Assembly (NCBI GenBank): GCA_052327205.1
Contig: CM126209.1
Location: 34,286,001-34,350,000 of the forward strand
From: Somniosus microcephalus
Taxonomy: Eukaryota
Reading direction: 5' to 3'
DNA length: 64,000 nucleotides
Part shown: one piece after another, positions 690 through 55,640 of the stretch
Layout of the letters: every line of letters begins with the position of its first letter
Position numbering within the stretch: the stretch's first letter is position 1
Translations under genes and position numbers: made by a program
The notes under the pieces: generated by a model
Databases searched by the model: none
What the model saw: the letters and a program-made list of their open reading frames with translations, nothing else
What the model was told of the DNA's origin: nothing

Positions 690-3600
690 TTAAAAATTCA
701 TTCATGGGATGTGGACATCACTGGCAAGGCCAACATTTATTGCCCATTCCTAGTTGCCCTCGAGAAGGTGGTGGTAAGCCGCCGCCTTGAACTGCTGCAG
801 TCGGTGTGGTGAAGGTACTCCCACAGTGCTGTTAGGTAGGGAGTTCCAGGATTTTGACCCAGTGACTATGAAGGAATGGCGATATACTTTCAAGTCAGGA
901 TGGTGTGTGGCTTGGAGGGGAACTTGGAGGTGGTGGTGTTCCCAAGCGCCTGCTGCCCTTGTCCTTCTAGGTGGAAGAAGTTACGGGTTTGGGAGGTGCT
1001 GCTAAAGAAGTCTTGGCGAGTTGCTGCAGTGCATCTTCTAGATGGTATACACTGCAGCCACTGTACGCCGGTGTTGGAGGGAGTGAATGTTTAAGGTGGT
1101 GGATGGGGTGCCAATCAAGCAGGCTGCTTTGTCTTGGATGATGTCGAACTTCTTGAGTGTTGTTGGAGCTGCACTCATCCAGGCAAGTGGAGAGTATTCC
1201 ATCACACTCCTGACTTGTGCCTTGTAGATGGTGGAAAGGCTTTGGGAAGTCAGGAGATGAGACACTCGCCGTAGAATACCTAGCCTCTGACCTGCTCTTG
1301 TTGCCACAGTATTTATGTGGCTGGTCCAGCTAAGTTTCTGGTCAATGGTGACCCCCAGGATAGTGATGGCGGAGGATTCGGCAATGGTAATGCCATTGAA
1401 TGTCAAGGGGCGGTGGTTGGACTCTTGCTTCTTGGAGATAGAAGTGCCAGGCAATGACTGTGGTGCGAATGTTACCTGCCACTCATCAGCCCAAGCCTGA
1501 ACGTCATCCAGGTCTTGTTGCATGTGGGCATGGACTGCTTTATTATCTGAGGAGTTGCGAATGACACTGAACACTGTGCAGTCATCAGCGAACATCCCCA
1601 TTTCTGACCTTATGATGGAGGGAAGGTCATTGATGAAGCAGCTGTAGATGGTTGGGCCTAAAACACTGCCCTGAGGAACTCCTGCAGCGATGTCCTGGGG
1701 CTGTGATGATTGACCTCCAACCATCACAACCATCTTCCTTTGTACTAGAGTTCCCCCCCCCCCGCCACCCCCACCGATTCCGATTGACTTCAGTTTTACT
1801 AGGGCTCCTTGATGCCACAATCGGTCAAATGCTGTCTTGATGTCAAGGGCAGTCACTCTTGCCTCACCTATGGAATTCAGCTCTTTTGTCCATGTTTGGA
1901 CCAAGGCTGTAATGAGGTCTGGAACAGAGTAGTCCTGGCGGAACCCAAATTGGCATCAGTGAGCAGGTTATTGGTGAGTAAGTGCTGCTTGATAGCACTG
2001 TTGACAGCACCTTCCATCACTCTGCTGATGATTGAGAGTAGACTGATGGGGCGGTAATTGGCTGGATTGGATTTGTCCTGCTTTTTCTGGACAGGACATA
2101 CCTGGGCAGTTTTCCACATTGTCTGATAGATGCCAGTGTTATAGCTGTACTGGAACATCTTGGCTAGAGGCACGGCTAGTTCTGGAGCACAAGTCCTCTG
2201 CACTACAGCCGGGATGTTGTCGGGGCCCACAGCCTTTGTTGTATCCAGTGCGCTCAGCCGTTTCTTGATATCACGTGGAGTGAATTGAATTGTCTGAAGA
2301 CTGGCTTCTGTGGTGGTGGGGGGGACCTCAGGAAGAAGCCGATATGGATCATCCACTCGGCACTTCTGGCTGAAGATGGTTGCAAAAGCTTCAAGCTTTG
2401 TCTTTTGCACTCACATGCTAGGCTCCACCATCATTGAGGATGGGGATATTCATGGAGCCTCCTCCTCCCGTTAGTTGTTTAATGGGCCACCACCATTTAC
2501 GACTGGATGTGGCAGGACTGCACTGCTTTGTTCTGATCTGTTAATTGTGGGATCGGCTTAGCTCTGTCTATAGCATGCTGCTTCCGCTTTTTGGCATGCA
2601 TGTAGTTCTGTGTTGCACCGCATATTTAGATACGTCTGGTGCTGCTCCTGGCATGCTCTTCTACACTCCTTATTGAACCAGGGTTGCACCCCTGACTTGA
2701 TGGTAATGGTAGAGTGAGGGATATGCCGGGCCATGAGGTTACAGATTGTGGTGGAATACAATTCTGCTGCTGCTGATGGCCCACAGCGCCTCATGGATGC
2801 CCAGTTTTGAGCTGCTAGGTCTGTTCTGCATCTATCCCATTTAGCACGATGGTAGTGCCACACAACACGATGGACGGTGTCCTCAGTGTGAAGACAGGAC
2901 TTCGTCTCCACAATGACTGTGCAGTGGTTACTGCTACCAATACTGTCATGGACAGATGCATCTGCGACAGGTAGATTGGTGAAGACGAGGTCAAATAGGT
3001 TTCTCCCTCGTGTTGGTTCTCTCACCACCTGTCGCAGGCCCAAACTGGCAGCTATGTCCTTCAGGACTCGGCCAGCTCGGTCCGTAGTGGTGCTACCGAG
3101 TCACTCTTGGTGATGGACATTGATATCCCCCACCCAGAGTACATTCTGTGCCCTTGCTACTCTCAGTGCTTCTTCCAAGTGTTGTTCAACATGGAGGAGT
3201 ACTGATTCCTCAGCTGAGGGAGGGCGGTAGGTGGTAATCAGCAGGAGGTTTCCCTGCCCATGCTTGACCTGAAGCCATGAGACTTCATGGGGTCCGGAGT
3301 CAATGTTGAGGACTCCCAGGTCCACTCCTTCCCGACTGTATACCACTGTGTCGCCAACCCTGGTGGGTCTGTCCTGCTGGTGGGGCAGGACATACCCGGG
3401 GATGGTGATGGAGGAGTTTAGGACATTGGCTGAAAGGTATGATTCCGTGAGTATGACTATGTCAGGCTGTTGCTTGACTAGTCTGTGGGACAGCTCTCCC
3501 AATTTTGGCACAAGTCCCCAGATGTTTGTGAGGAGGACTGGGCTGGGTGTGCCATTGTCGTGTCTGTAGCCGGTGCCGAGGTCAATGCCAAGTAGTCCGT

Positions 3601-3934
3601 CTGGTTTTATTGTTATTCGTAGCAGTTTTTTTTTACAACTGAGTGGCTTGCTAGGGCAGTTAAGAATCAACCACATTGCTGTGGGTCTGGAGTCACATAT
3701 AGGCCAGACCAGGTAAGGATGGCAGATTTCCTTCCCTGAAGGACATTAGTGAATCAGATGAGTTTTTATGACAATCCGATAGTTTCATGGTCACTATTAC
3801 TGATACTAGCTTTTTATTCCAGATTTATTTAATTTAAATTCCCCAGCTGCTGTGGAGGGATTTGAACTCACTTCTCTGGATCATTATTCCAGGCCTCTGG
3901 ATTACTAGTCTAGTAACATAACCACTATGCTACC
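690..3934 (-). mobile_element. Near full-length, frameshifted CR1/L2-group LINE (APE endonuclease + RT) with a tRNA-like 5' head
   Basis: Successive minus ORFs: 3101-3676 (PDIVILTESYL, TYRPP, VGDIN), 2558-3043 (EPTRGRNLFDLVF, SNH), 1877-2410 (GPDNIP, PANYRPISLLS) and 1038-1904 (LDIKTAFD, GVPQGSVLGP, FADD). An A-rich 3' end lies near 682-690. Confidence 0.92.
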
Positions 3935-12125: not shown

Positions 12126-13395
12126 CTTCTTCTCCTTCTTAGGCAGTCCCTCGGAACCAAGGATGACTTGCTTCCACATTAAAAATGAGTTCTCAGGTGA
12201 CTGAGGAGTCCAATGCGGGACCTACAGTCTCTGTCACAGGTGGGGCTTGGTTATCGTGCGCTCCTTGCGCTTGGCTTCCGCTTGCTCCCAGCGAAGAGAC
12301 TCGAGGTATTCGGCGCCTTCCCGGATGCTTCTCCTCCACTTTGTGCGGTCTTGGGCCAGGGATTCCCAGGTGTCGGTGGGGATGTTGCACTTTTTCAAGG
12401 AGGCTTTGAGGGTGTCCTTGAAGTGTTTCCTCTGCCCACCTGGGCTCTCTTGCCGTGTTGGAGCTCCGAGTAGAGCGCTTGTTTTGGGAGTCTCGTATCG
12501 GGCATGCAGACGATGTGACCCATCCATCAGAACTGATTGAGCATGGTCAAAACTTTGATGCTGGGGATGTTGGCCTGAGCGAGAACACAGGTGTTGGTGC
12601 ACCTATCCTGCCAATGGATTTGCAGGATCTTGCGGAGGCAGCGTTGGTGGCACCTCTCCAGTGCTTTGAGGTGCCTGCTATACATGGTCCATGTCTCTGA
12701 GGCATACAGGAGGACGGGTATTGCTACTCCTCTGTAGACCATGAGCTTGGTGCTGGGTTTGAGGTCCTGGTCTTCAAACACTCTCTTCCTCAGGTGACCG
12801 AAGGCTGCACTGGCACACTGAAGGCGGTGTTGGACCTCGTCATCGACATCTGCCCTTGTTGACAGTAGGCTCCCGAGGTATGGAAAGTGGTCCGCGTTGT
12901 CCAAGGCCTTGTCGTGGATTTTGATAATCGGGGAGCAGTACTGTGTGGCGGGGGCAGGTTGGTAGAGGACCTTTGTCTTATGGATGTTTAGTGTAAGGCC
13001 CATGCTCTCGTACACTTCAGGGAAGGTGTTAACAATGGGTTGGAGTTCGACCTCCGAGTGTGCGCAGACGACAGAGGATGGGATGACCTTGGATCTGGAC
13101 TGGAGGCGACGGAGGTTGAACAGTTTCCCGTTGTTCTGTAAATTAGCTCCACTCCAGTAGGGAGCTTACTGAGGGCGAGATGGAGCATTGCAGCAAGGAA
13201 GATCAAGAAGAGCGTTGGTGCGATGACACAACCTTACTTGACCCAGGTCCATACGTGAATTGGGTCTGTGGTGGAACCGTTGGTCAGGATCACGGCTTGC
13301 ATGTCGTCGTGAAGCAGGCGGAGGATGGTGACAAACTTTTGAGGGCAGCCAAATTTGAGGAGGACACTCCATAATCCCTCACGGTTGACAGTATC
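12126..13395 (-). mobile_element. 5'-truncated RTE-clade (BovB-like) LINE
   Basis: ORF 12527-13015 has GLTLNIHKTKVL, FPYLGS and LLYASETWT; the tail is (GAA)n-like at ~12126-12140. It is highly similar to 54428-55441, and the YAD motif is deleted near 13070. Confidence 0.92.
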
Positions 13396-29340: not shown

Positions 29341-29425
29341 CAGTTTCAACGGTTAGTTGGTATCCAGCCTCCAGTCTCCGTGTTGACCTTTCCAACCGCT
29401 CTGTATTATCCAACAGGCATGCTCT
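29341..29425 (-). CDS. VTI1A: VTI1A internal coding exon (equivalent to human exon 5), 85 nt, RACLLDNTERLERSTRRLEAGYQLTVET, start of the Qb-SNARE motif region
   Basis: Minus strand reads ttttgtttcag|AGAGCATGCCTG...GTTGAAACTG|gtaagg. It matches mammalian RAHLLDNTERLERSSRRLEAGYQIAVET. Phase 0/1. Confidence 0.97.
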
Positions 29426-32104
29426 CTGAAACAAAATTGTAGATGATTATACACAACACTTAAGTACTAGGTATAATTATATCTAATTTAGTGGTAAAGG
29501 AACCATACAGGAACAAAAACACAAGCTAAATTTTGGAGTCAGACAGTATAACAATTTGTAAGTTCAGCTCAAAAGGAGAAATAAAATCTACTTTCTAAAA
29601 CTGTTCAAACAATTTCATTTCTTCAAGAACCTATTGATATTTTCAATAGATGCCAAGTAAATACCCATTTGCTATTTTTAGTAACTGAAGGTGAAGTAGA
29701 TGTCATAGCACTAAGTATTTGTAGTATGAAAGCATTTTGATTTACATTAGAATGTAATCAAGGCTAAAGTCTAAATACCATACACCTATAAAGAGCCCTG
29801 GAAATAATATTTGCGATAGTGTCAAGACACATAAAAAGGAAAAAAAACTTGGCTTTGTGCGCAGTGAGATTCTTGCAGGTTGGGTTAGAATAAACTAGCG
29901 AAGGCATATATTCCCAATTAAATCCCAATTCTTTGCTACAAGTCTGAAATCAACAATTTCCTTGTACTGGACTAAATGAACCAGGATTCTTTTAGCACAT
30001 ATATTAATAACCACTCAGAATTCCAATCAATGAAAACTAATTTAACTACAATTAAGCAATGTAAACATGTAATATGACTCCATCTGAACTGTTATGTTGT
30101 ACATGCATGTGCATATGCTTTAAAACAATGTGAATTCCTAATATGCACTATTACTAAATAAATAGTATATTATTGCAACCACGTATCAGCTTCAATAATA
30201 GTTCACGGATTTGTGTTTCCAAAACAGAAGTTCATTTCAATGGGCTTTTACTTATAGAACACAAACTGTTAAAGATGCTGAATGCCACATTTTCAGTGAA
30301 AAAACTAGCGCAATATTTAGATTTGCTACATCTTCTTGATTATTAGAAATATATCACAGTTTGAGAACAATCATATGGTAGTCTTGATCTTTAATAGTTT
30401 TTACTTGTATTTTTTCTAACGTGTCTTATTATGGGATCCCTCAGAATTTCACTTGGGATTTTATGCTCATTACAGCAAAATATGGAGTGCTTTGTGAATG
30501 CCAGGAGTCTTATTTAAACGGATGTTCCGTTGAATAATTAGGCTCCAATAGTGTGCCACACAAGTTGAAATAAATAGCTGTATAACAAGAGAAGTAGAAT
30601 TTTAGATAAGCACAACTACAGCACAATTATCATATCTTATATACAAAACATCTGTAACATTTTATTGTCATTGTTACTGTCATCATTAAGATACTCTGGC
30701 TTTTTAAGGCCATTCTAAAAATGAAGAAGCCTTTAATCAGTGGACATATCCCTTGACTTTAGTGCATCGTGATAGAATTTGAATATTGGAACTGAAGCTT
30801 ATTTCCACGAGAAAAACAGAAAAATGTCAAACGAAGCTCAGAAAATGTATTTTAGTTAATGCTATTCAGAATAAATCTGTATCTGTAAATTACAGCAGTG
30901 CGGCTACATCACCTTTAAAATGAGTACGCTAATATACATATATTTAAATAACCAAATCTTGAATTTAGGTGAATCAATACAGAAGGTTATTGAAGCATTA
31001 AAGTAAAGCTTTTATGTTCTTTGTACACTCTCCTATTGAAAGGAAAAAGTTCTGTCTTTGCAATAATCTTAAATGTGTTAAGTTTATTAATTATAAAGTA
31101 AGATTTTTTAAGTTTATTAATTAAAAAAGATAGATTTTTTAAAAGAACTCCTACCGCACAAAAAGAGAGGAGAGGAAAAGAAAGATTTTCACACACAGGA
31201 CAGGATCCCACTTGCAATGTTGTTTCCTACCACTTTACGCCCATCAACTCTTTTCTTTAGGGAATTTTAATCCTACTTTCTTTCAGGGAAAAAAAAGGCT
31301 AGACCCTGGTTTGTCATCCAAGTTCTATTCATGCTGTCAAAAGGCATACAAACTAATCACATGGAAAAAACAAGAGGGGCTACCACATTTCAAGACCATT
31401 TTTGAGTTTGACAGTCAGAAGGCTTCACCAAGAACTTTCTTCGCTGACAGATGTCACTTAAAATTGGAGAAATACTTTCTAATAAAAATGGTGCCATATG
31501 AACAATCTGAATCATGTCCATAGAAGTGAGTTGCCTTGCTCTAATGAGCCCCTATGGATCTCCCTGATGCAGCTGTATTGACATGCTCACTTAAGCTAAT
31601 ACACCTAGACCAAGATGCCTTGGTGCCTTGAGCACTGACAGTCTGGGATACTGACAGTGTATCTTGCTTCAATCTTCAAAGGAGAAGTGATTAGAATGTT
31701 ATCATTACCATTCGAAACGTGATTTTCCTATTCCCTCCTGGCAGAGGTGACATATCTGTGAGATGTGGCCAGCAGATCGCAGCAGCTAAAGCCACTTCAA
31801 AGCTTCCCTTGAAATTTTTTTCGAAATCATTAGAACAATGTGTTCAGATCAACGCAGATAGGACCTGATGTGAAGGTCAGACACATTGCAATAACAATCT
31901 ATACTAATTAATCTAGCTCTTCAAATAGTGAGTATACTTGTTTTGGATAAATTATACTGATTACCTTACATAACATAAAAACAAAATGTAAAGAAATCCT
32001 GTAGGGTTGGTAACATGGTTCTCAAAAAATTAACAGTTGACAGAAAACACCAATATTTTCCAAACAAACACAGATACCTAAACAACAAACAAGGATGCAC
32101 TCAC

Positions 32105-32125
32105 CTCTTCACGCAATTTTATCAA
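32105..32125 (-). CDS. VTI1A: VTI1A 21-nt alternative microexon encoding LIKLREE (Vti1a-beta insert)
   Basis: Minus strand reads tttctttccttttcatctttctgtgcgttcacag|TTGATAAAATTGCGTGAAGAG|gtgagt. It lies between the ENQ and RA.LL exons, preserves frame, and encodes the known 7-aa brain-isoform insert. Confidence 0.95.
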
Positions 32126-34166
32126 CTGTGAACGCACAGAAAGATGAAAAGGAAAGAAATGGCAGGGATGAAACATCTGTCATACAGTTGGGTAGAACAT
32201 TAACTATGACAATTTATCTGTTTACATACTTAGTATTAAGAAATCATAGAAGAGCCTCTTTAAAGAGCCTAAAAAGGCTCACGCAAAGAGAATTTTCAAA
32301 ATCATATTTTGAAAGAACAAAGATTAGTTCTTCCTTTGTCAACACAGACGGTTACAATCATTTCTCTCTTGTTTAGTACGCGAGAGATATGTTTGCCGCA
32401 ATCTTCAAAGAGAGAACGAGGGGCTTCATAGCAATGATTTTAAAGAGGTAAAGAGAGTGTAGAGCATTATTTCAAGGTGCTGATGTGCAGATCCTATTGT
32501 AATCGTCTATTTAACAGCTACAATTAAAGACAAATCTTACCAGCAGCTACTGTGAAACCAAACACATACAACATGTTCCATCAATGGGGCTAACTGCACC
32601 AATTTGCACACAGGTATGCATTTTAATTCTTTGAATCCATGAGGTAAAAAAGCTGCTTTAAAAAAAACTCAAACACACAGCGCAAAATTCAAAAGGGGGA
32701 GAGGATAGTGCAGCAGGTAAAAGAGATGACAAACCACAACAGCAGTAAAAGGAAACAAGGAACGAAAAGTACTTTATCGTGAGATATTTTTGGTAAACTA
32801 TCTTATAGAAATATACAATGCTGTTATTCACTTAACATAAAACAAACACTATTCAATGATATGATTGTCAAAGTGCCTTGTGCTTTGCAAGACAGCGAAA
32901 GTCTTTTTTAAGTCACCACCTCAAAATGACCAGAATGCTCAATGGGCCAAAATGCAAAACTAAGCAGGAGAGATGACCTGTTCTCTGGTCATAACCATAA
33001 GTACTACGAAGCATGGCGCAGCTGTTTTATAATAGAATCCAAACAAAATGCGCTCTATCTTGTTTGTGCTGCCTGGCTGATTTTAAAGCTTCTCCATGGA
33101 TTTGAGGATGGTTTTGCAATGGGCTTTAGGTTTTGTTTCGTACCATGCCGAGGTACGTATTAATTCATATTAACAAAAAAAAAGTATTCAACTAGACAAG
33201 ACAACGGTATACTGGAAGCGCTATGCAGTCTGAAATTTTACGATTACATTTTGCATTTTCTTCATTATCATCATTAAGAACGGGGTACTGCCATTTCAGT
33301 TATGATAATCACGGGATTTTCAAACAAAGATTTTCAATATGGTATTCGATACGAGTGGTAATCTGTTCTTTGTAACCTGAAAAATCTGGTACGCGCTGGT
33401 TTGAACCGGCAGAATCTCTAGTGGCCAGACTGCTGCTGTGACTGAAATCGAAACTGCGCCGCAGTATGTGAAGAGCACGTGATGCGCGAAACTACAGAAT
33501 TATGAAAAGCGATAACGCCAATTCCTTCTCTGCCCGCATACAGATAACGAATAAATGCTGAACTCTATTAAATGTCCTTTACACATTATCGCTAGGGGAA
33601 CACACAATTTTCAGAACTTATAAAGGTTCACCATTCATTTCGTTATAAATCCATGCCATGCAACTAACAGATTTGTTGCTCATAATGATCAGCTCTGCCA
33701 GGCTATATGAGATGATACTGACCTCCTTTAGATCTTCGGGAATTAAATTGACCGGCATCAACCCCTGCGCTAAAACTGCAGTATGGTGTATTTCTTGCAC
33801 AGTAAGCCCCCATAGCATTATCGCTAGAGCTCACTACTTCACAGGTTCCTGCCATATTACTTGCATTAATAAAATAAACAAACTCATAAGCAAAGTTTGA
33901 CATCTTCTAAGCTGGAAATTTGCTCGTGAAATAAAAAAAATCTCTCAGATAAAATTTGGAAGGTCTAACATGTCTTCTCTGTACTATGATTAAAACTTAA
34001 ACGGTTTAAAATCGAAGGTTTGTTGTTGCTTAGCTTTGCATTAAACAATGTATTTCCACTTGAGTTGCTGTTAATGCTGTTAGTGAGCAGCTTGAGAAGA
34101 CGTACTAGTCGCTGACCTTCATCACCCTCAAGCCACCCACAAGGGTATGCTGATTAGTGGCCTTAC

Positions 34167-34250
34167 CTGGTTCTCGGAGGTATTCCCATCATCCCCTAGG
34201 AGCTCATTTCGAAGGTTTACCTCATCACTGTAGGCGATCCGTGACCTTTT
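34167..34250 (-). CDS. VTI1A: VTI1A internal coding exon (equivalent to human exon 4), 84 nt, KRSRIAYSDEVNLRNELLGDDGNTSENQ
   Basis: Minus strand reads ...ttttcctttcgtttccag|AAAAGGTCACGG...GAGAACCAG|gtaagg. The translation matches remembered mammalian VTI1A KRSRIAYSDEVRNELLGDDGNSSENQ apart from a 2-aa insertion (NL) and one S>T change. Phase 0/0. Confidence 0.97.
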
Positions 34251-34332
34251 CTGGAAACGAAAGGAAAAAGAGCAAAACTTGTGTTAGAAAGTAGGCTTAC
34301 GAATTACTATAAGCATAGTCTTCCTACAGCAG

Positions 34333-34348
34333 CAGAGCCCCCTAATGG
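34333..34348 (-). promoter_or_regulatory. CTCF-like motif
   Basis: Minus strand CCATTAGGGGGCTCTG compared by eye with consensus CCASYAGRKGGCRS. Confidence 0.4.
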
Positions 34349-35456
34349 ACCATCTATACAAAACAGATCCACTTTAGCAGTTTAGCGCTTATGTATGACA
34401 ACTGTTTCTGGATAGATGCATAGGTAAAGAGACAAAGCACTTATCATCCAGAATTTGGGATTCAGCGCACAATCGTTTGCAAAAGTTGGTTTATTCTATT
34501 GCTTTCACATCACCCACACAACTTTTTTTGGGGGCAGCATGGGGAATGGGAGGAGGGAGATAAAAACATTAAGGGCTCAACTGCTCAACATTTTAAAATC
34601 AGTTCACACAGATGACTAATTTTAAGAGAAAGCACATTTTATTCTTCTTGAAAACTATTCAGGATTTCTAGTATTTACTTTCCAAAGTGCAGTGCTGGTT
34701 AAAGAATGGATGCTTTTTGCAAACATTAAAAGTTAGTCAAGCTGTCATCATTTGAACAGAGAACAAAAAGGAGTATATTTGTTCCATACTTCATGAAAAA
34801 TACAAAGCTTTCAACAAGACTAAGTTCAAAGTATGGTGAAAAATAATTTGTTTAGTCAACTGAATTACAAGTCTTTACAAACACAACAAATTTGAAAATA
34901 AATTGTTAGTTAGCCTAGCACATGTTTGTTACTCAGAATAATATTTAAAAATATATATTTTTTGAAGAATCACCACAAACAGCTAAACACAATTAGCCAA
35001 TCCGTTTCTAATTCCTTGCTATTCTCAGCTTTTTTTCCCAATGGAAAATCAAAACAGGAAAATGATTAAAAGACAGAGGCATTAAAAAGAAAAAACATAT
35101 GGTAGACCAGAAAAGTTCCTGTATTAAATGGGTTAACTATTTAATTACAATAATGTCTAATATTTAAGTAAGAAAGCTATGAAAACATATGTAGTTACCA
35201 AACATTACAAGGTTTCCAACAGAAAACACAAATCAATGTATGTTGATGGAAGCCTGAGTTCAGGGGAATAAAAAGGTTACATACATAAATCCTACATTCC
35301 AATATATAAAATTGTTATAACTGGTAACCATGACATCACAAGTATTCCTTAGTTCTTCATAAAATTGGATATAATGAGTAAAAATGTTTTTGAATACTTT
35401 CATCAGAAAAAAATAACTGTTTTCATTTAAGCATGCACCTCAACTATTCTTGATGC

Positions 35457-40057: not shown

Positions 40058-40715
40058 GAAACACAGAAAATAGGAGCAGGAGTAGGCCATTCGGCCCTTC
40101 GAGCCTGCTCCGCCATTCAATGAGATCATGGCTGATCATCCAATTTCAGTACCCTGTCCCTGCCTTCTCCCCAAATCCCTTGATCCCTTTAGCCTCAAGA
40201 AATATATCCAACTCTTTCTTGAATATATTTAATGAACTGGCCTCCACCGCCCTCTGTGGCAGAGAATTCCACAGGTTCACCACTCTCTGGGTGAAGAAAT
40301 TCCTCCTCATTTCAGTTCTAAATGGCTTACCCCTTATCCTTAGGCTATGACCCCTGGTTCTGGACTCCCTGGCCATCAGAAACATCCTTCCTGCATCTAG
40401 TCTGTCCAGACCTGACAGAATTTTATAGGTTTCGATGAGATCCCCTCTCAATCTTCTAAACTCCAGTGAGTATAAGCCCAATCGACACAATCTCTCCTCA
40501 TACGTCATTCCTGCCATCCCAGGTATCAGCCTGGTGAATCTTCACTGCACTCCCTCCATGGCAAGAACATCCTTCCTCAGGTAAGGTGACCAAAACTGCA
40601 CACAATACTCAAGGTGCGGTCTCACCAAGGTCCTGTACAACTGTAGCAAGATATCCTTGTTCCTGTACTCGAACCCTCTTGCTACGAAGGCCAACATATC
40701 ATTTGCCTTCTTAAC
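40058..40715 (-). mobile_element. 5'-truncated CR1, same family as the intact copy at 48253
   Basis: ORFs 40146-40517 and 40542-40841 are nearly identical to the C-terminus of the 1034-aa ORF (LVRPHLEYCVQFWSP, KGFGEKAGTGY). Confidence 0.95.
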
Positions 40716-41594
40716 CGAAGTATAGAGTTGCAGGCTCCTAAACAATGAGGGATATGCAAGTGACTTTGACTCCAGGAAGATCAACATGACCGACCAATGA
40801 AAAGGACATGAGAAAAAGAACTGGGTAAAATTATATGGCATGTGCTAGCATGCTTCATGGACTGGATACAAGGGAAAAAATATTCCAAGGGTCTGGGGTC
40901 TTAATCTGTGTGACATTGCGTAACCCAGTCATAGAAGCAGTGGCCATTAGGCCAGCTCCAAATAGTGTTATCCAAATAATACCATCACTGAAAGAAAGCT
41001 CAGATAGAAATTCAAATTCAGCTCCACTAACCAAAATATTTTCATGAATCATTTTTTTTAAATTTTTTTATACTGTTTTCAATTTCTTCCTTCTCAATCC
41101 GGGTCAATTTTTAACATCTCTTCTATTTCAGCTTGTTCTTCTTATACAGAGAATACTAATAAGGCACAAAAATAGGGACTCTGATAATGAGGAACAGGTG
41201 ATCGACAAGCGCAAAAATTGCACAAGTGCCACTCAATTGTGGTTAGCAATTTTGCTGACCCATGTTTAAATGGCTCTCATTACCAAAACTAAAAGCCAAC
41301 TAAAGGGCTGTATTTTTAAGCACTGTAAGTTACAGTTGAGTGAAGACATGAATTGGGATTTGTTCTGTACATTGAAGAATAGTGCAAAATAGTTCAATCT
41401 AGCATAGGCCATGTAGAATTCACCCCGCAGCATGTGTTTGAATTTCACAAATGCTGTATCACAATAATGTAACATAATATTTTGCAGAACTATTATAATC
41501 AATAGCAAAATACAAAGCTGTTTTGAATCCCTACTCAATTGTAGTTTTTATTATTTTAAATGATTATGATCTTACTGCAATACAAATTTCTAAA

Positions 41595-43190
41595 TTTGCA
41601 GACAACACCAAATTTTGGGGGTGGGGGGGATAGTCAATACTGAGGAGGACTGCAACTAATTACAATAAGACATTAAGGGGGAAAAATTCAGTTGTTTGCG
41701 CCTCCCGTTAGCGCCTTAAGAGGGCGCTAATGGGGCGCAGCGATGTTTGCGTTGCTCGCGAAATTAACTAGACATTTTGCGGCGGCGCTAAACACTACCG
41801 CCACGATCTCCTGCGCTGGCAGATCGTGATGTCAGTCGAGTGCGCAACGCCCCGGTAGTGCCCCGTACCGGATATTGAGTGGTGCCCCCTGCCTTACCGC
41901 CTGCCGCTAGCAACAACAGGTTGAGGGGAGTGTTTTGCAGTCAGAAAGGGACTGGGGGAGCGCTATTTAAAGGCGACCGCTTCCTGCCTTTTTTTGTTGG
42001 TGACATTTTTGCACCACGCATTCTGAGAGAGAGCGAGAGAGAGAGAGAGACTTCTGGAGAGATTCAACGCTGTGTGAAGGAGTTTTGAGTACTGAGCAGC
42101 ACTTTGCAGGTTTATTTTGATTTGCCCTTCCTTGCTTCGCCAGCGCTCTGAGGTAGCGCCTCGCTCCTCGGCCTTTGCGCCTTAAGACAGGTGTGAAGCA
42201 CCTGATTTAGCGCTCCAATCACCTCCAGGGGCGATAAAAGCCAAGTTTGCCGTCGGAGGTGATAATTATCGCCAGGCGCTAAACTTTGTGCACGGCCGAT
42301 AATGGCGCCCCAAACGGGGCGATACTGAATTTTTCCCCCTAATAAATTTGCAGAATGGGCATATATTTGGCAAATTAATTTCAACACAAATCAGTGTACG
42401 GTATTACATTTTGATAAGAAAAATAGGGAGGTCACATATTACTTGGAAAATAAGAATCTAAATGGGGTAAAAGAGCAAAGGGATCTCGGAGGACAAATAC
42501 ATAAATCACAAAGTATCGACACAGGTTAACAAGGCCATAAAAAAGCAAACCAAGCACTAGGGATTATTTCTAGAGGGATAGAATTGAAAAGTAGTGAAGT
42601 TATGCTAAACTTGTATCAAACTTTGGTTAGACCACACTTGGAGTACTGCGTACAAATCTGGTCGCCATATTATAAAAAGGATATAGAGGCACTAGAGAGG
42701 GTGCAGAGAAGATTTACAAGGATGATACCAGAAATGCGAGGGTATACCTATCAGGAAAGGATGAACAGGCTGGGTCTCTTTTCTCTTGAAAAGAGAAGGC
42801 TGAGGGGTGACCTAATAGAGGTCTTTAAAATCATCAAAGGTTTTGATAGAGTAGAAAGAGAGAGAGTGTTTCCACTTGTGGGGAAGAACAAAACTAGAGG
42901 CCTTCAATATAAGACAGTCACCAAGAAATCAAATAGGAAATTCAGAAGAAACGTCTTTACCCAGAGAGCAGTGAGAATGTGGAACTTGCGACCACAAGGT
43001 GTGGTTGAAGCGATTAGTATCAATGCATTTAAGGGGCGGTTAGATAAGCATATGAGGGAGAAGGGAATAGAGGGTTATGCTGATAGAGTTAGATGAGGAA
43101 AGATGGGAGGAGGATCTAGTGGAGCATAAACACCAGCATGGACTAGTTGGGTCAAAAGGCCAGTTTCTGTGCTGTATATCTGATGTAATC
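41595..43190 (+). mobile_element. CR1 3' portion (older subfamily) interrupted by a MITE
   Basis: SKFADNTK at ~41590-41612; ORF 42584-43096 has LVRPHLEYCVQIWSP...LERVQRRFTR. The sequence is continuous across 41677-42339. Confidence 0.9.
41677..42339. mobile_element. PIF/Harbinger-type MITE with perfect 16-bp TIRs and a TAA TSD
   Basis: TAA|GGGGGAAAAATTCAGT ... ACTGAATTTTTCCCCC|TAA. Removing it and one TAA restores the CR1 sequence gacattaataaatttgcagaatgggc. Confidence 0.93.
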
Positions 43191-48252: not shown

Positions 48253-51200
48253 ACATAGAAACATAGAAACATAGAGATAGGAACAGGAGTCGGCCATTCG
48301 GCCCTTCGAGCCTGCTCCGCCATTCAATGAGATCATGGCTGATCTTCGTCTGAGATCATAGCTGATCTTACCAGTTCAGTACCCCGTCCCCGCCTTTTCT
48401 CCGTAACCCTTAATCCCCTTAGCCTTCAGAAATATATCCAATTCTCTCTTGAAAATATTTATTGAATTAGCCTTCACAGCCCTCTGTGGCAGGGAATTCC
48501 ACAGGCTCACCACTCTTTGAGTGAAGAAATTCTTCCTCATCTCTGTTTTAAATGATTTGCCCGCTATTTTTAGACTGTGGCCCCTGGTTCTGTGCTCCCC
48601 TGCCATTGGAAACATTCTCTCTGAATTCAGCCTGTCCAGGCCTGCCATAATTTTATATGTTTCGATGAGATCCCCTCTCAATCTTCTAAACTCCAGTGAG
48701 TACAAGCCCAAACTATTCAATCTCTCCTCGTAGGTCATTCCCGCCATTCCAGGTATCAGCCTGGTGAATCGCCGCTGCACTCTTTCCATGGCAAGAACAT
48801 CCTTCCGCAGATGGGGCGACCAAAACTGTACACAATACTCCAGATGCGGTCTCACCAGCACCTTGTACAGCTGTAGTAAGGTATCCCTATTCCTATACTC
48901 GAACCCCCTTGATATGAAGGCCAACATACCATTTGCCTTCTTAATCGCCTGTTGCACCTGCATGCTCTCCTTCAGTGACTGGTGCACAAGAACACCCAGG
49001 TCCCTCTGCACTTCCCCATCTCCCAATCTATTGCCATTTAGATAATAATCCACCCTCCTGTTTTTACCCCCAAAGTGGATAACCTCGCATTTATCCACAT
49101 TATAGTGCATCTGCCACGTATCCGCCCATTCCCCCAACCTGTCCAAATCGCACTGTAGCCTCCTGACATCCTCATCAGAGCCCACCCCTCCTCCTAGTTT
49201 AGTGTCGTCAGCGAATTTGGAAATATTGCATCCAATTCCCTGATCCAGATCATTTATATATATTGTGAACAGCTGGGGTCCCAGGACAGATCCTTGCGGC
49301 ACCCCGCTGGTCACTGCCTGCCACTCCGAAAACGAGCCGTTTATTCCAACTCTCTGTTTTCTATCCGCCAGCCAGTTCTCTATCCACGTTAATACTTTGC
49401 CCCCAATCCCATGAGCCTTAATTTTGCATGATAATCTTTTGTGTGGAACCTTATCGAAGGCTTTCTGGAAGTCAAGGTACACCACATCCATTGGCTCTCC
49501 CCCATCTATTTTACCAGTTACTTCCTCAAAAAATTCCAGCAGATTAGTCAAACACGATTTACCCTTTGTAAATCCATGTTGACTCTGTCCGATCCTTTCC
49601 CCATTTGTCAAGTGCTCCGCTATTTTATCCTTAATAATGGACTCTAGCATTTTGCCCACAACCGATGTAAGGCTTACTGGTCTATAATTCCCTGCTTTCT
49701 CTCTACCCCCCTTTTTAAATATTGGGGTAACATTAGCTACCCTCCAATCCACGGGTACTGTTCCCGAGTCAATGGAGTTCCGGAAGATGATCCTTAGAGC
49801 ATCTGCTATCTCCAGGGCCACCTCCTTAAGTACCCTAGGATGTAGTTTATCAGGCCCCGGGGATTTGTCGGCCTTCAGTCCCCTCAACTTACCCAACACC
49901 ATATCCCTAGAGATACTAATTTCTGTCAGCTCCTCCCTCTCATTAGTCCCTATGTTTGTCGATATTCCTGGGAGGTTATTTGTGTCCTCCTTTGTGAATA
50001 CAGAACCAAAGTATGAGTTTAATTGGTCTGCCATTTCCTTATTCTCCATTATATATTCTCCCGAATCGGACTGCAAGGGACCGACTTGGGATTTTACCAG
50101 TCTTTTCCTCCTGATATACCGATAAAAGCTTTTGCAGTCTGTCTTTATGTTTGCTGCAAGTTTACTTTCGTATTCTATTTTCCCCTTCCTGATTAATCCC
50201 TTTGTCCTCTTTTGCTGTATCCTGTACTGCCCCCAATCTTCCGGTCTGGTGCTTTTTTTTGCCAGTTGATATGCCCTTTTTTTTGATTTTATGCTGTCCC
50301 TAATTTCCCTCGTTATCCACGGTTGAGTCACCTTTTTAGGTTTATTTTTATGCCAAACCGGTATAAACATGTTCTGGAATTCTTCCATTCTATCTTTGAA
50401 TGCTTGCCATTGTCTATCCACTGTCAATCCCCCCAGAAACACCACCCAATCAATCTTACCCAATTCCCGTCTCATACCCTCGTAATTCCCTTTATTTAAG
50501 TTCTGGACCTTAGTCTCTGATTCAATTTCCTCACTCTCCATCTCGACTGAGAGCTCGATCATATTATGATCGCTCTGACCCAAGGGGCCTCGTACAAGAA
50601 GATTGCTGATAAGTCCCTTCTCATTGCACAATACCCAGTCTAAAATGGCCTGATCTCGAGTCGGCTCCTCGACATATTGGTCCAGATAACCGTCCCGAAA
50701 ACATTCCAGGAATTCCTCCTCCTCAGAATTTTTACTAATTTGGGTAGTCCAATCAATATGTAAATTAAAGTCACCCATGATGACAGCTGTGCTCTTATCG
50801 CACGCTTCTCTAATTTCCCTTTTTATGCCTTCCCTCACCTCCATATTACTATTTGGAGGCCTATATATCACACCCACTAACGTTTTCCTCCCCTTGCTAT
50901 TTCTCATTTCTACCCATACAGATTCCGTTTCATCCGAGTTAATATCCTTCCTTTCCATTGCATTAATCCCCTCCTTTACCAGCAATGCTACCCCACCTCC
51001 CCTACCTTTTTGTCGATCCTTCCTAAATATTGTATATCCCTGGATGTTAAGTTCCCAGCCTTGCCCACCCTGCAGCCACGTTTCTGTAATCCCAATCAAA
51101 TCATACTTGTTTACCTCTATTTCCATAACTAATTCATCCACCTTGTTCCTAATGCTTCTAGCATTAAGATACAAAGCCTTCAGGCTTGCTTTTTTCACAC

Positions 51201-51332
51201 TCTCATTATGAATTAGTTTGGCCCTTTGTGTTTCTCTCCTTTGCTTATTGCTTCTCACCTTTCTACCATCTATTTCTAACTTCATATGACTTCCCTCTTT
51301 TCCACTACCTAGGTTCCCATCCCCCTGCCAAA
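48253..51332 (-). mobile_element. Young CR1 LINE, 5'-truncated just upstream of ORF2, with intact EN+RT
   Basis: Octamer tail (TTCTATGT)n at 48253-48274, CR1 3' UTR, uninterrupted ORF; the 5' junction falls at the WQGDGN linker. Confidence 0.96.
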
Positions 51333-51480
51333 GGGTTTCGACCTGAAACATTGACTCTATTTCTCTCTCCATGGATGTTGCCTGGCCTGCTGAGTTTTTC
51401 CAGCATTTTTTGTTGTTATTTCGGATTTCCAGCATCTGCAGTATTTTGCTATCGTACACAGAGAGAAGCAGAGTGTCCAT
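48376..51480 (-). CDS. CR1 ORF2 protein (APE endonuclease + reverse transcriptase), 1034-aa open frame; the first ~50 aa come from flanking non-CR1 DNA
   Basis: EN motifs LYLNARS, GITETW, GVIYRPP, MGDFN, SDH; RT motifs NYRPVSL, YLDFQKAFD, GVPQGSVLGP, FADD. No internal stops. Confidence 0.95.
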   Translation of the reverse strand: MDTLLLSVYDSKILQMLEIRNNNKKCWKNSAGQATSMEREIESMFQVETLWQGDGNLGSGKEGSHMKLEIDGRKVRSNKQRRETQRAKLIHNESVKKASLKALYLNARSIRNKVDELVMEIEVNKYDLIGITETWLQGGQGWELNIQGYTIFRKDRQKGRGGGVALLVKEGINAMERKDINSDETESVWVEMRNSKGRKTLVGVIYRPPNSNMEVREGIKREIREACDKSTAVIMGDFNLHIDWTTQISKNSEEEEFLECFRDGYLDQYVEEPTRDQAILDWVLCNEKGLISNLLVRGPLGQSDHNMIELSVEMESEEIESETKVQNLNKGNYEGMRRELGKIDWVVFLGGLTVDRQWQAFKDRMEEFQNMFIPVWHKNKPKKVTQPWITREIRDSIKSKKRAYQLAKKSTRPEDWGQYRIQQKRTKGLIRKGKIEYESKLAANIKTDCKSFYRYIRRKRLVKSQVGPLQSDSGEYIMENKEMADQLNSYFGSVFTKEDTNNLPGISTNIGTNEREELTEISISRDMVLGKLRGLKADKSPGPDKLHPRVLKEVALEIADALRIIFRNSIDSGTVPVDWRVANVTPIFKKGGREKAGNYRPVSLTSVVGKMLESIIKDKIAEHLTNGERIGQSQHGFTKGKSCLTNLLEFFEEVTGKIDGGEPMDVVYLDFQKAFDKVPHKRLSCKIKAHGIGGKVLTWIENWLADRKQRVGINGSFSEWQAVTSGVPQGSVLGPQLFTIYINDLDQGIGCNISKFADDTKLGGGVGSDEDVRRLQCDLDRLGEWADTWQMHYNVDKCEVIHFGGKNRRVDYYLNGNRLGDGEVQRDLGVLVHQSLKESMQVQQAIKKANGMLAFISRGFEYRNRDTLLQLYKVLVRPHLEYCVQFWSPHLRKDVLAMERVQRRFTRLIPGMAGMTYEERLNSLGLYSLEFRRLRGDLIETYKIMAGLDRLNSERMFPMAGEHRTRGHSLKIAGKSFKTEMRKNFFTQRVVSLWNSLPQRAVKANSINIFKRELDIFLKAKGIKGYGEKAGTGY
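51329..51455 (+). repeat. Right arm of the Penelope-type inverted repeat (pLTR-like, hammerhead remnant)
   Basis: aagggtttcgacctgaaacattgactct...cctgctgagtttttccagcat...tccagcatctgcagt, followed by the 17-bp TSD acacagagagaagcaga (51456-51472 = 48142-48158). Confidence 0.8.
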
Positions 51481-54136: not shown

Positions 54137-55640
54137 CCTTAGAGTGGATGTGAAGGCTTCGGAGAGGGTGCAGAAGAGATTTACTACAATGGTTCCAGGG
54201 ATGAGGGATTACAGTTATGTGGATAGACTGGAGAAGTGGGGTTGTTCTCCTTCGAGCAGAAAAAGCCAAGAGCAAATTTGATAAAGGTGTTTAAAATCAT
54301 GAAGGGTTTAGTAAATAAAGAGAAACTGTTTCCAATGGCAGAAGTGTCGATAACCAGAGAGCACAGATTTAAGGCAACATGAGGGGAAACTTTTTTACGC
54401 AACGAGTGGTTAGGATTTGGGCTGCACGGTCATCGAATTACAGTATGCAGACAACGTTTGCGTCTGCGCACACTCGGAGGTCGAACTCCAAACCATCATC
54501 AACACCTTCACCGAAGCGTACGAGAGCACGGGCCTTACATTAAACATCTGCAAGACAAAAGTCCTCTACCAAGCTGCCCCCGTCACACAGTACTGCTCCC
54601 CGATGATCAAAATCCACGACGAGGCCCTGGACAATGTGGACCACTTTCCATACCTCGGGAGCCTACTGTCAACAAGGGCAGACGTCGATGACGAAGTCCA
54701 ACACCGCCTTCAGTGTGCCAGTGCAGCCTTCGGTCACCTGAGGAAGAGAGTGTTTGAAGACCAGTACCTCAAACCCAACACCAAGCTCATGGTCTACAGA
54801 GCAGCAGTGATACCCGCCCTCCTGTATGCTTCAGACATGGACCATGTATAGCAGGCACCTCAAAGCACTGGAGAGGTACCGCCAATGCTGCCTCTGCAAG
54901 ATCCTGCAAATCCATTGGCATGATAGGCGCACCAACGTCAGTGTTCTCGCTCAGGCCAACATCCCCAGCATCGAAGCTTGACCATGCTCGATCAGCTCCG
55001 ATGGACGGCCCACATCGTCCACATGCCCGATACGAGACTCCCAAAACAAGCGCTCTACTCGGAGCTCCGACACGGCAAGAGAGCCCCAGGTGGGCAGAGG
55101 AAACGCTTCAAGGACACCCTCAAAGCCTCCTTGAAAAAGTGCAACATCCCCAACGACACCTGGGAATCCCTGCCCAAGACTGCACAAAGTGGAGGAGAAG
55201 CATCTGGGAAGGCGCAGAACACCTCGATTCTCTTCACCGGGAGCAAGCAGAAGCCAAGCGCAAACAGCGGAAGGAGCGCACGTCAACCCAAGCACCCCAC
55301 CCACCCACCCCTTCAACCGCCATCTGCCCCACCTGTGACAGAGACTGCAGGTCCCGCATTGGACTCATCAGTCACCTGAGAACTCATTTTTAGTGTGGGA
55401 GCAAGTCATCCTCGGTTCCACGGGACTGCCTAAGAAGAGAAGCACTGCCTGATAGGGTGGTGGAAACAGATTCAATAGCAGCTTTCAAAAGGGAATTGGA
55501 AAAATACTTGAAGGAGAAAAAAATTGCAGGGATATGAAGACGGGGGGAGTGGGACTAACTGGATTGCTCTTCGAAAGAGCTGGCTCAGACTCTATGGGCC
55601 GAATGGCCTCCTTCTGTGCTGTACTATTCGATGATTCTAT
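54137..55640 (+). mobile_element. CR1 3' fragment split by an RTE insertion
   Basis: ERVQKRFT-type sequence runs up to gagtggttaggatttgg (54420) and resumes at gcactgcctgatagggtggtggaa (55442), ending in a gattctat tail. Confidence 0.82.
54428..55441 (+). mobile_element. 5'-truncated RTE-clade (BovB-like) LINE
   Basis: ELQYADN, GLTLNICKTKVL, FPYLGS, C-terminal CPTCDRDCRSRIGLISHLRTH, and a GAA-rich tail. Confidence 0.93.

Follow-up and report, generated by a model that had tools for sequence, protein, structure and literature searches.

The vti1a gene of the shark Somniosus microcephalus holds, in one of its introns, 21 bases that would encode the seven residues LIKLREE, and the question this locus raises is whether they form a working ortholog of the VTI1A neural microexon of other vertebrates and, if so, by what means its inclusion is controlled, how old it is and what the additional residues may do. 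It is very probable that these bases constitute the shark's orthologous VTI1A microexon, likely neuron-biased and likely driven by SRRM3/SRRM4 via an upstream UGC. The evidence comes from the window (the whole 64,000-nucleotide stretch of DNA that was analysed, here read on the minus strand), from proteins and genome sequence of relatives, and from published work on the orthologous exons.

The exon, its reading frame and its host gene

The cassette microexon occupies positions 32105..32125, is 21 nt long with phase 0-0 and agrees at 20 of 21 nt with both the zebrafish and the mouse exon (supplement of PMC12626420). Upstream of it, and separated by 2,041 nt, is the constitutive 84 nt vti1a exon at 34167..34250, which encodes linker and ends in TSENQ. 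The constitutive exon downstream (29341..29425, 85 nt), whose start at 29425 is 2,679 nt from the microexon, has a translation beginning RACLLDN, reads RACLLDNTERLE and is the run-in to the SNARE motif; in a comparison with PDB it matches the Vti1a chain 2nps_C with an E value of 3.1e-10, while the upstream exon gave 0 PDB matches. The junctions at 34167, 32125/32105 and 29425 are every one phase 0, and the earlier note had all of these coordinates right. Its description of a 21-nt in-frame exon with a strong donor also stands, with a CAG acceptor, the donor GAG/GTGAGT (the slash marking the junction) and LIKLREE as the product. All seven codons and both splice sites are intact, and the exon preserves the frame with a length inside the 3–27 nt range of the SRRM3/4-dependent class.

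Short AG..GT intervals are abundant, and a chance intronic look-alike has to be weighed: there are 1,938 candidates of a multiple of three nucleotides, up to 27 nt, on the same strand of the window. Only the microexon among them passes all three filters of a donor matching at least 8/9 of the consensus, a YAG acceptor and a pyrimidine content of at least 70%, thresholds that were chosen with the exon already known. By chance, the 4,741-nt interval should contain the exact peptide LIKLREE about 1e-5 times. The look-alike explanation, to which virtually no credence attaches, is already refuted by orthology, as the 21 bases lie in the orthologous intron, in frame, with the agreement to zebrafish and mouse given above. 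A search of 31700–34400 at Rfam gathering thresholds gave 0 matches, and the two short families of direct repeats and three short inverted pairs found in 31700–34300 do not frame the microexon and are taken as chance.

A genome search with the 226-aa Heterodontus protein returned 10 matches, eight of which are the constitutive vti1a exons in order on C8 over ~327 kb, with the entire window falling within the gene. One of the other two is weak and unrelated and one is a paralog on C12 that is read as vti1b; the ordered exons on C8 and the match to 2nps_C identify the host gene as VTI1A and not VTI1B. The equivalent 985-nt intron of the vti1b-type paralog yielded three weak short candidates of 5, 6 and 7 nt, and none of 21 nt. 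Summed over exons, identities are 216–228 for nine full-length shark and ray proteins, 194–195 for two shark models whose C-termini differ, 210 for the chimaera, 185–194 for four bony vertebrates and 123 for the lamprey. Because the exons are nearer to those of sharks and rays than to those of chimaera or bony vertebrates, the gene is of the cartilaginous-fish, shark/ray type, as had been proposed from the DNA without knowledge of its source. The identification of the exon itself as the VTI1A LIKLREE microexon is likewise sustained by orthology, gene, position and phase.

Splice signals and likely regulation

The signals of the SRRM3/4 class are present: a strong 5′ splice site, a set-back pyrimidine tract and a UGC between tract and AG. 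The 5′ splice site, GTGAGT at 32099..32104, matches 8/9 of the consensus with the last three exon bases included, splice-site strength being a simple count of consensus matches rather than the output of a MaxEnt model. The polypyrimidine tract with its CAG acceptor (32126..32160) is 0.81 pyrimidine and its longest pure run is 14 nt, from -34 to -21 with respect to the 3′ splice site. The first AG upstream of the acceptor is at -53, and branch-point candidates are at -75, -44 and -20. The TGC at -11..-9 (32134..32136) is within TGTGCnTTCA, a stretch shared with zebrafish, and is likely an SRRM3/4 enhancer element; a second TGC, which the earlier note did not contain, is evident in the sequence at -39..-37 (32162..32164).

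How specific these features are differs from their presence. The pyrimidine tract is there as claimed, yet its 0.81 is within the 0.59–0.84 range of the gene's seven constitutive acceptors. The TGC is where it had been placed; its specificity is low, a TGC in -18..-5 being found at 372 of 1,999 YAG sites and at 12 of the 53 pyrimidine-rich ones (19–23%), and one of the seven constitutive vti1a acceptors has one at -9. Taken alone, a TGC near the acceptor is poor evidence of SRRM3/4 control, and this use of it is weak. The case is carried by the published orthologs. In Lopez-Blanch et al. (PMC12626424) the 21-nt zebrafish exon DreEX0084665 has a PSI of 78.6 in neural tissue as against 0–13.4 in 12 other tissue groups, and a dPSI of -49.7 on loss of the eMIC; the human exon HsaEX0070740 has a neural dPSI of 76.5 and gains 91.5 on eMIC overexpression. 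The mouse exon MmuEX0051652 is listed as eMIC-dependent in supplementary material of PMC8797185, and the part seen of a table on the nSR100 mutant (PMC4387716) gives it negative values, one of them -11.5, under a column header that is not visible. Supplement rows of Calhoun et al. (PMC12626420) mark the zebrafish and mouse exons, both LIKLREE, as Yes for the UC repeat and Yes for UGC. Since the zebrafish, mouse and human orthologs are neural and SRRM3/4-controlled, the shark exon is likely regulated alike; by this analogy its neural restriction in Somniosus is likely, and the proposal of SRRM3/4-type neural regulation gains support from orthology to the three exons. Bonnal et al. (bioRxiv 2024.09.17.613571) add that, for microexons as a class, minigene PSI under SRRM4 is conserved from shark to mammals.

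The downstream intron invites another explanation, in which the exon is real and neural and its inclusion in this shark's lineage is mainly via other factors acting on a UG/U-rich stretch, with the UGC minor. That stretch (32039..32098) has 10 TG in 60 nt, a density reached by 0.9% of 60-nt segments, keeping in mind that the segment was picked after inspection. Such factors would be of the CELF, nELAV or TDP-43 type. The richness in UG was thus correctly seen in the earlier note; as part of a conserved code it does not hold, since zebrafish, judged by eye from the supplement row, is C/U-rich there. The unusual composition of the shark segment is a point in favour of other factors, as are the frequency of UGC by chance and the statement in bioRxiv 2024.09.17.613571 that UGC promotes the SRRM4 response and is not strictly required. 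The modest value in mouse on loss of SRRM4 alone (PMC4387716) points the same way and, because this fall is modest and the drop in zebrafish without the eMIC is about 50 points out of 77, other factors may contribute. Against their being the main agents, TGTGCnTTCA is retained between shark and zebrafish although the flanks diverge: by eye from the supplement row, nine of its 10 bases agree, with the zebrafish TGC at -16..-14. In three species the orthologous exon is SRRM3/4-responsive (PMC12626424 and PMC8797185), and intron swaps among vertebrate orthologs change PSI little (bioRxiv 2024.09.17.613571). Inclusion mainly through other factors is accordingly judged improbable, and control by SRRM3/4 through the upstream UGC is preferred.

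Two SRRM3/4-family loci exceed the PF15230 cut-off in this genome, on C22 and C19, and one exon of each was read; one of the two is presumably SRRM3 and the other SRRM4. Under the preferred reading, the exon would by default be skipped, its small size making exon definition inefficient, and the 219-aa form would result, while in cells with SRRM3/4 the factor would aid early spliceosome assembly at the acceptor, with recognition in this species probably assisted through the UGC at -11, giving the 226-aa form. The label neural may not be absolute because, in bioRxiv 2022.04.02.486809, VTI1A is named among the hosts of islet microexons, though inclusion of the microexon in zebrafish endocrine pancreas is ~1–3% (PMC12626424).

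Four of 23 sequencing runs, none of the 23 listed as RNA, were compared with the downstream exon and part of its intron; X20, X2 and X3 gave no contig there, a blank that can be false and is given no weight. The fourth, X5, from a relative and presumed to be RNA of unstated tissue, gave a 187-nt contig at depth 180 in which the downstream exon runs straight into the following one, at a distance of 74 kb. The contig stops at 29427. AG is the ending of the microexon, of the upstream exon and of the intron alike, and the next base is C for the microexon path as against G for the other two; because the microexon path diverges exactly there, the end of the contig fits a mix of both isoforms and is a weak hint of a branch between them. 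Any other branch at 29427 could also produce such an end.

Distribution, age and the predicted extra heptad

The inclusion and skipping forms are widely annotated. Of the first 112 proteins, 26 fail the pattern used to recognize the junction; the 86 that span it divide into 50 lacking LIKLREE and 36 carrying it. Across 453 proteins the pattern fits 310, with 158 lacking the insert, 147 having LIKLREE and five having conservative variants at one residue; all 152 inserts are 7 aa long. Among cluster members listed, 15 per cluster, LIKLREE forms are annotated in at least 15 of the 20 chondrichthyan genera encountered, chimaera included: Callorhinchus, Carcharodon, Cetorhinus, Heptranchias, Heterodontus, Scyliorhinus, Stegostoma, Pristiophorus (counted through cluster membership), Pristis, Narcine, Mobula, Hemitrygon, Leucoraja, Amblyraja and Rhinoraja. 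The same listed members held no inclusion form for Hemiscyllium, Chiloscyllium, Mustelus, Hypanus and Rhincodon, and only in the last, the whale shark, does a model (X1) positively lack LIKLREE. Inclusion models existing in most chondrichthyan genera encountered, the exon is not generally overlooked, and the expectation that annotation would likely miss it, apt for whale shark X1, is not supported for the group. The shark VTI1A microexon is real and is already known through public shark gene models. The literature, in the passages available on vti1a and on shark and lamprey microexons, gave none naming the shark VTI1A exon, a search with LIKLREE as the term found no paper, and vti1a is absent from the passages seen of bioRxiv 2026.09.05.749416. 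PMC9197314, PMC13106906 and PMC7398939 provide general statements and references.

The same annotation bears on whether the exon is constitutive or broadly included in sharks, or else a conserved remnant out of use in this species. The strong donor and normal pyrimidine tract would suit constitutive use. Against it, gene models of sharks, rays and chimaera list the 226-aa inclusion form next to the 219-aa skipping form, and both occur among assembled transcripts of one cluster, two with the insert (P0035 and P0105) and four without (P0106–P0109); the intact splice sites and seven intact codons speak against a remnant. Constitutive use or disuse is consequently rated very unlikely, lower than inclusion through other factors, and a regulated neural exon remains the preferred reading.

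The same seven residues are present in chimaera, rays, sharks, ray-finned fish, coelacanth and tetrapods, and this comparison of proteins supports a date no later than the jawed-vertebrate ancestor. A 61-protein alignment has no such 7-residue insert in the 53 distant proteins (~32–60% identity), one protein having two letters aligned there, and the insert is absent from three lamprey and two hagfish records, which do not include lamprey isoform X1. A search with the lamprey protein revealed no lamprey inclusion form in the best 120 of 791 matches; the lamprey X1 model being outside these, absence does not follow. An origin in the gnathostome stem is suggested tentatively, because lamprey isoform X1 was not found. 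The earlier dating to the jawed-vertebrate ancestor is thus upheld as a minimum age, with the insert in all the gnathostome groups listed, and as a statement of origin it is tentative only. For a DAAM1 microexon, conservation from sharks to humans is on record (PMC12056172).

With respect to the protein, the insert is directly N-terminal of the Pfam V-SNARE_C region (132–196). AlphaFold2 models of the Heterodontus isoforms, with pTM of 0.38–0.40 and a mean pLDDT of 54 over residues 111–120, place the insert (117–123) of the inclusion form inside a single helix, 114–225, preceded by a short low-confidence loop; the helix of the skipping form is 113–217. A SNARE motif is usually unstructured in isolation, whereas the models draw a helix. 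Numbering from the presumed zero-layer Asp, nearly all proteins have leucines at -24, -31 and -38, and position -45 is Leu in 159 of 159 inclusion forms, while 158 of 161 skipping forms have Ser or Thr at that position, counts made with a looser pattern than that of the 310 proteins and over related, non-independent sequences. This suggests that the insert is one additional heptad, in register, before the SNARE motif. It is predicted to lengthen the helix into the Qb-SNARE motif by that heptad, and the longer helix would tune assembly with SNARE partners or synaptic-vesicle sorting and not create a new function. A fuller proposal, to which we give rather less than even weight and which is speculative, is that vti1a alone acquired the microexon, once lampreys and hagfish had branched off, and that the exon has stayed frozen from then on owing to the in-register heptad it contributes: residue 4 of the insert, a Leu, would extend the L-x6-L-x6-L stripe, and the longer coiled-coil lead-in of neuronal Vti1a would alter the speed of SNARE-complex nucleation or the partner. 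If true, this would give a concrete mechanism to an insert that has, by published description, been largely ignored as to its molecular role. In zebrafish, deletion of the microexon mildly affects social behaviour and the activity of the telencephalon (PMC12626424 and PMC12626420).

Comparison with known microexons

Little is new in the shark exon: the microexon had been annotated throughout the cartilaginous fishes before, and this species extends the list by one shark and confirms the jawed-vertebrate ancestor as the minimum age. The nearest relatives in annotation are the 226-aa isoforms X1 of Callorhinchus (XP_042192605.1), Heterodontus (XP_067909012.1) and Leucoraja (XP_055502856.1), which carry, at this very junction, an insert identical in all seven residues; RefSeq and UniRef isoforms of this kind are gene models that come without tissue or regulator information. 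With HsaEX0070740, MmuEX0051652 and DreEX0084665 the exon shares gene, intron position, phase, the length of 21 nt and LIKLREE, and the neural VTI1A isoform concerned is the Vti1a-beta of Antonin et al. 2000, as cited in PMC12626420. The upstream pyrimidine tract with UGC and a GTRAGT donor are common to shark, zebrafish and mouse. The flanking introns, in contrast, are shorter in the shark, at 2.0 and 2.7 kb, where mouse has ~6.2 and 4.6 kb and zebrafish ~11.5 and 9.1 kb; the UGC is at -11 in the shark and -16 in zebrafish, and the downstream intron is UG/U-rich in the one and C/U-rich in the other. With the SRRM3/4 (eMIC) neural microexons the exon has in common a length of 3–27 nt, preservation of the frame, a strong donor, a UGC before the AG and a host gene in vesicle traffic, while its tract is U-rich where the class has a long UC repeat, its membership here being by orthology.

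Retrotransposon sequence and low-depth contigs in the introns

Within a long vti1a intron, and on the same strand as the gene, an ORF of 1,034 aa runs without interruption through window 48376-51480 (minus) and, with its endonuclease and reverse-transcriptase domains (PF03372, PF14529, PF00078), is that of a LINE-type retrotransposon. Decayed LINE-like pieces lie near 1000-3750, 12200-13200, 40100-40850, 42500-43100 and 54400-55400. Three contigs from X5, a sequencing run from a relative, cover intron sequence at 30229-31127 with a depth of 3-7 versus 180 on the downstream exon, and are unspliced RNA or DNA carry-over.

Short exon-like candidates and SRRM3/4-family loci

Besides the LIKLREE microexon, only two short candidates on the minus strand of the window pass looser splice-signal filters, one of 6 nt (24497-24492) and one of 18 nt (57092-57075), and both are probably due to chance. 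Two SRRM3/4-family exons (PF15230) are present in this shark genome (G000), at C22:17500786-17500929 and C19:55138512-55138646; by sequence the former is SRRM3-like and the latter SRRM4-like.

The upstream linker exon

In the 191-aa catshark and whale shark models (P0011, P0014) the 84-nt upstream vti1a exon (34167-34250, minus) is also skipped, with ...KLDKDF joined in frame to RAxLLDN, and its skipping is possibly a second alternative event in the linker. The shark exon contains SDEVNLRNELL, whereas bony vertebrates have SDEVRNELL at the same place, two residues fewer; the longer spacing is shared by lamprey and hagfish, and two codons were probably lost from the exon in bony vertebrates.
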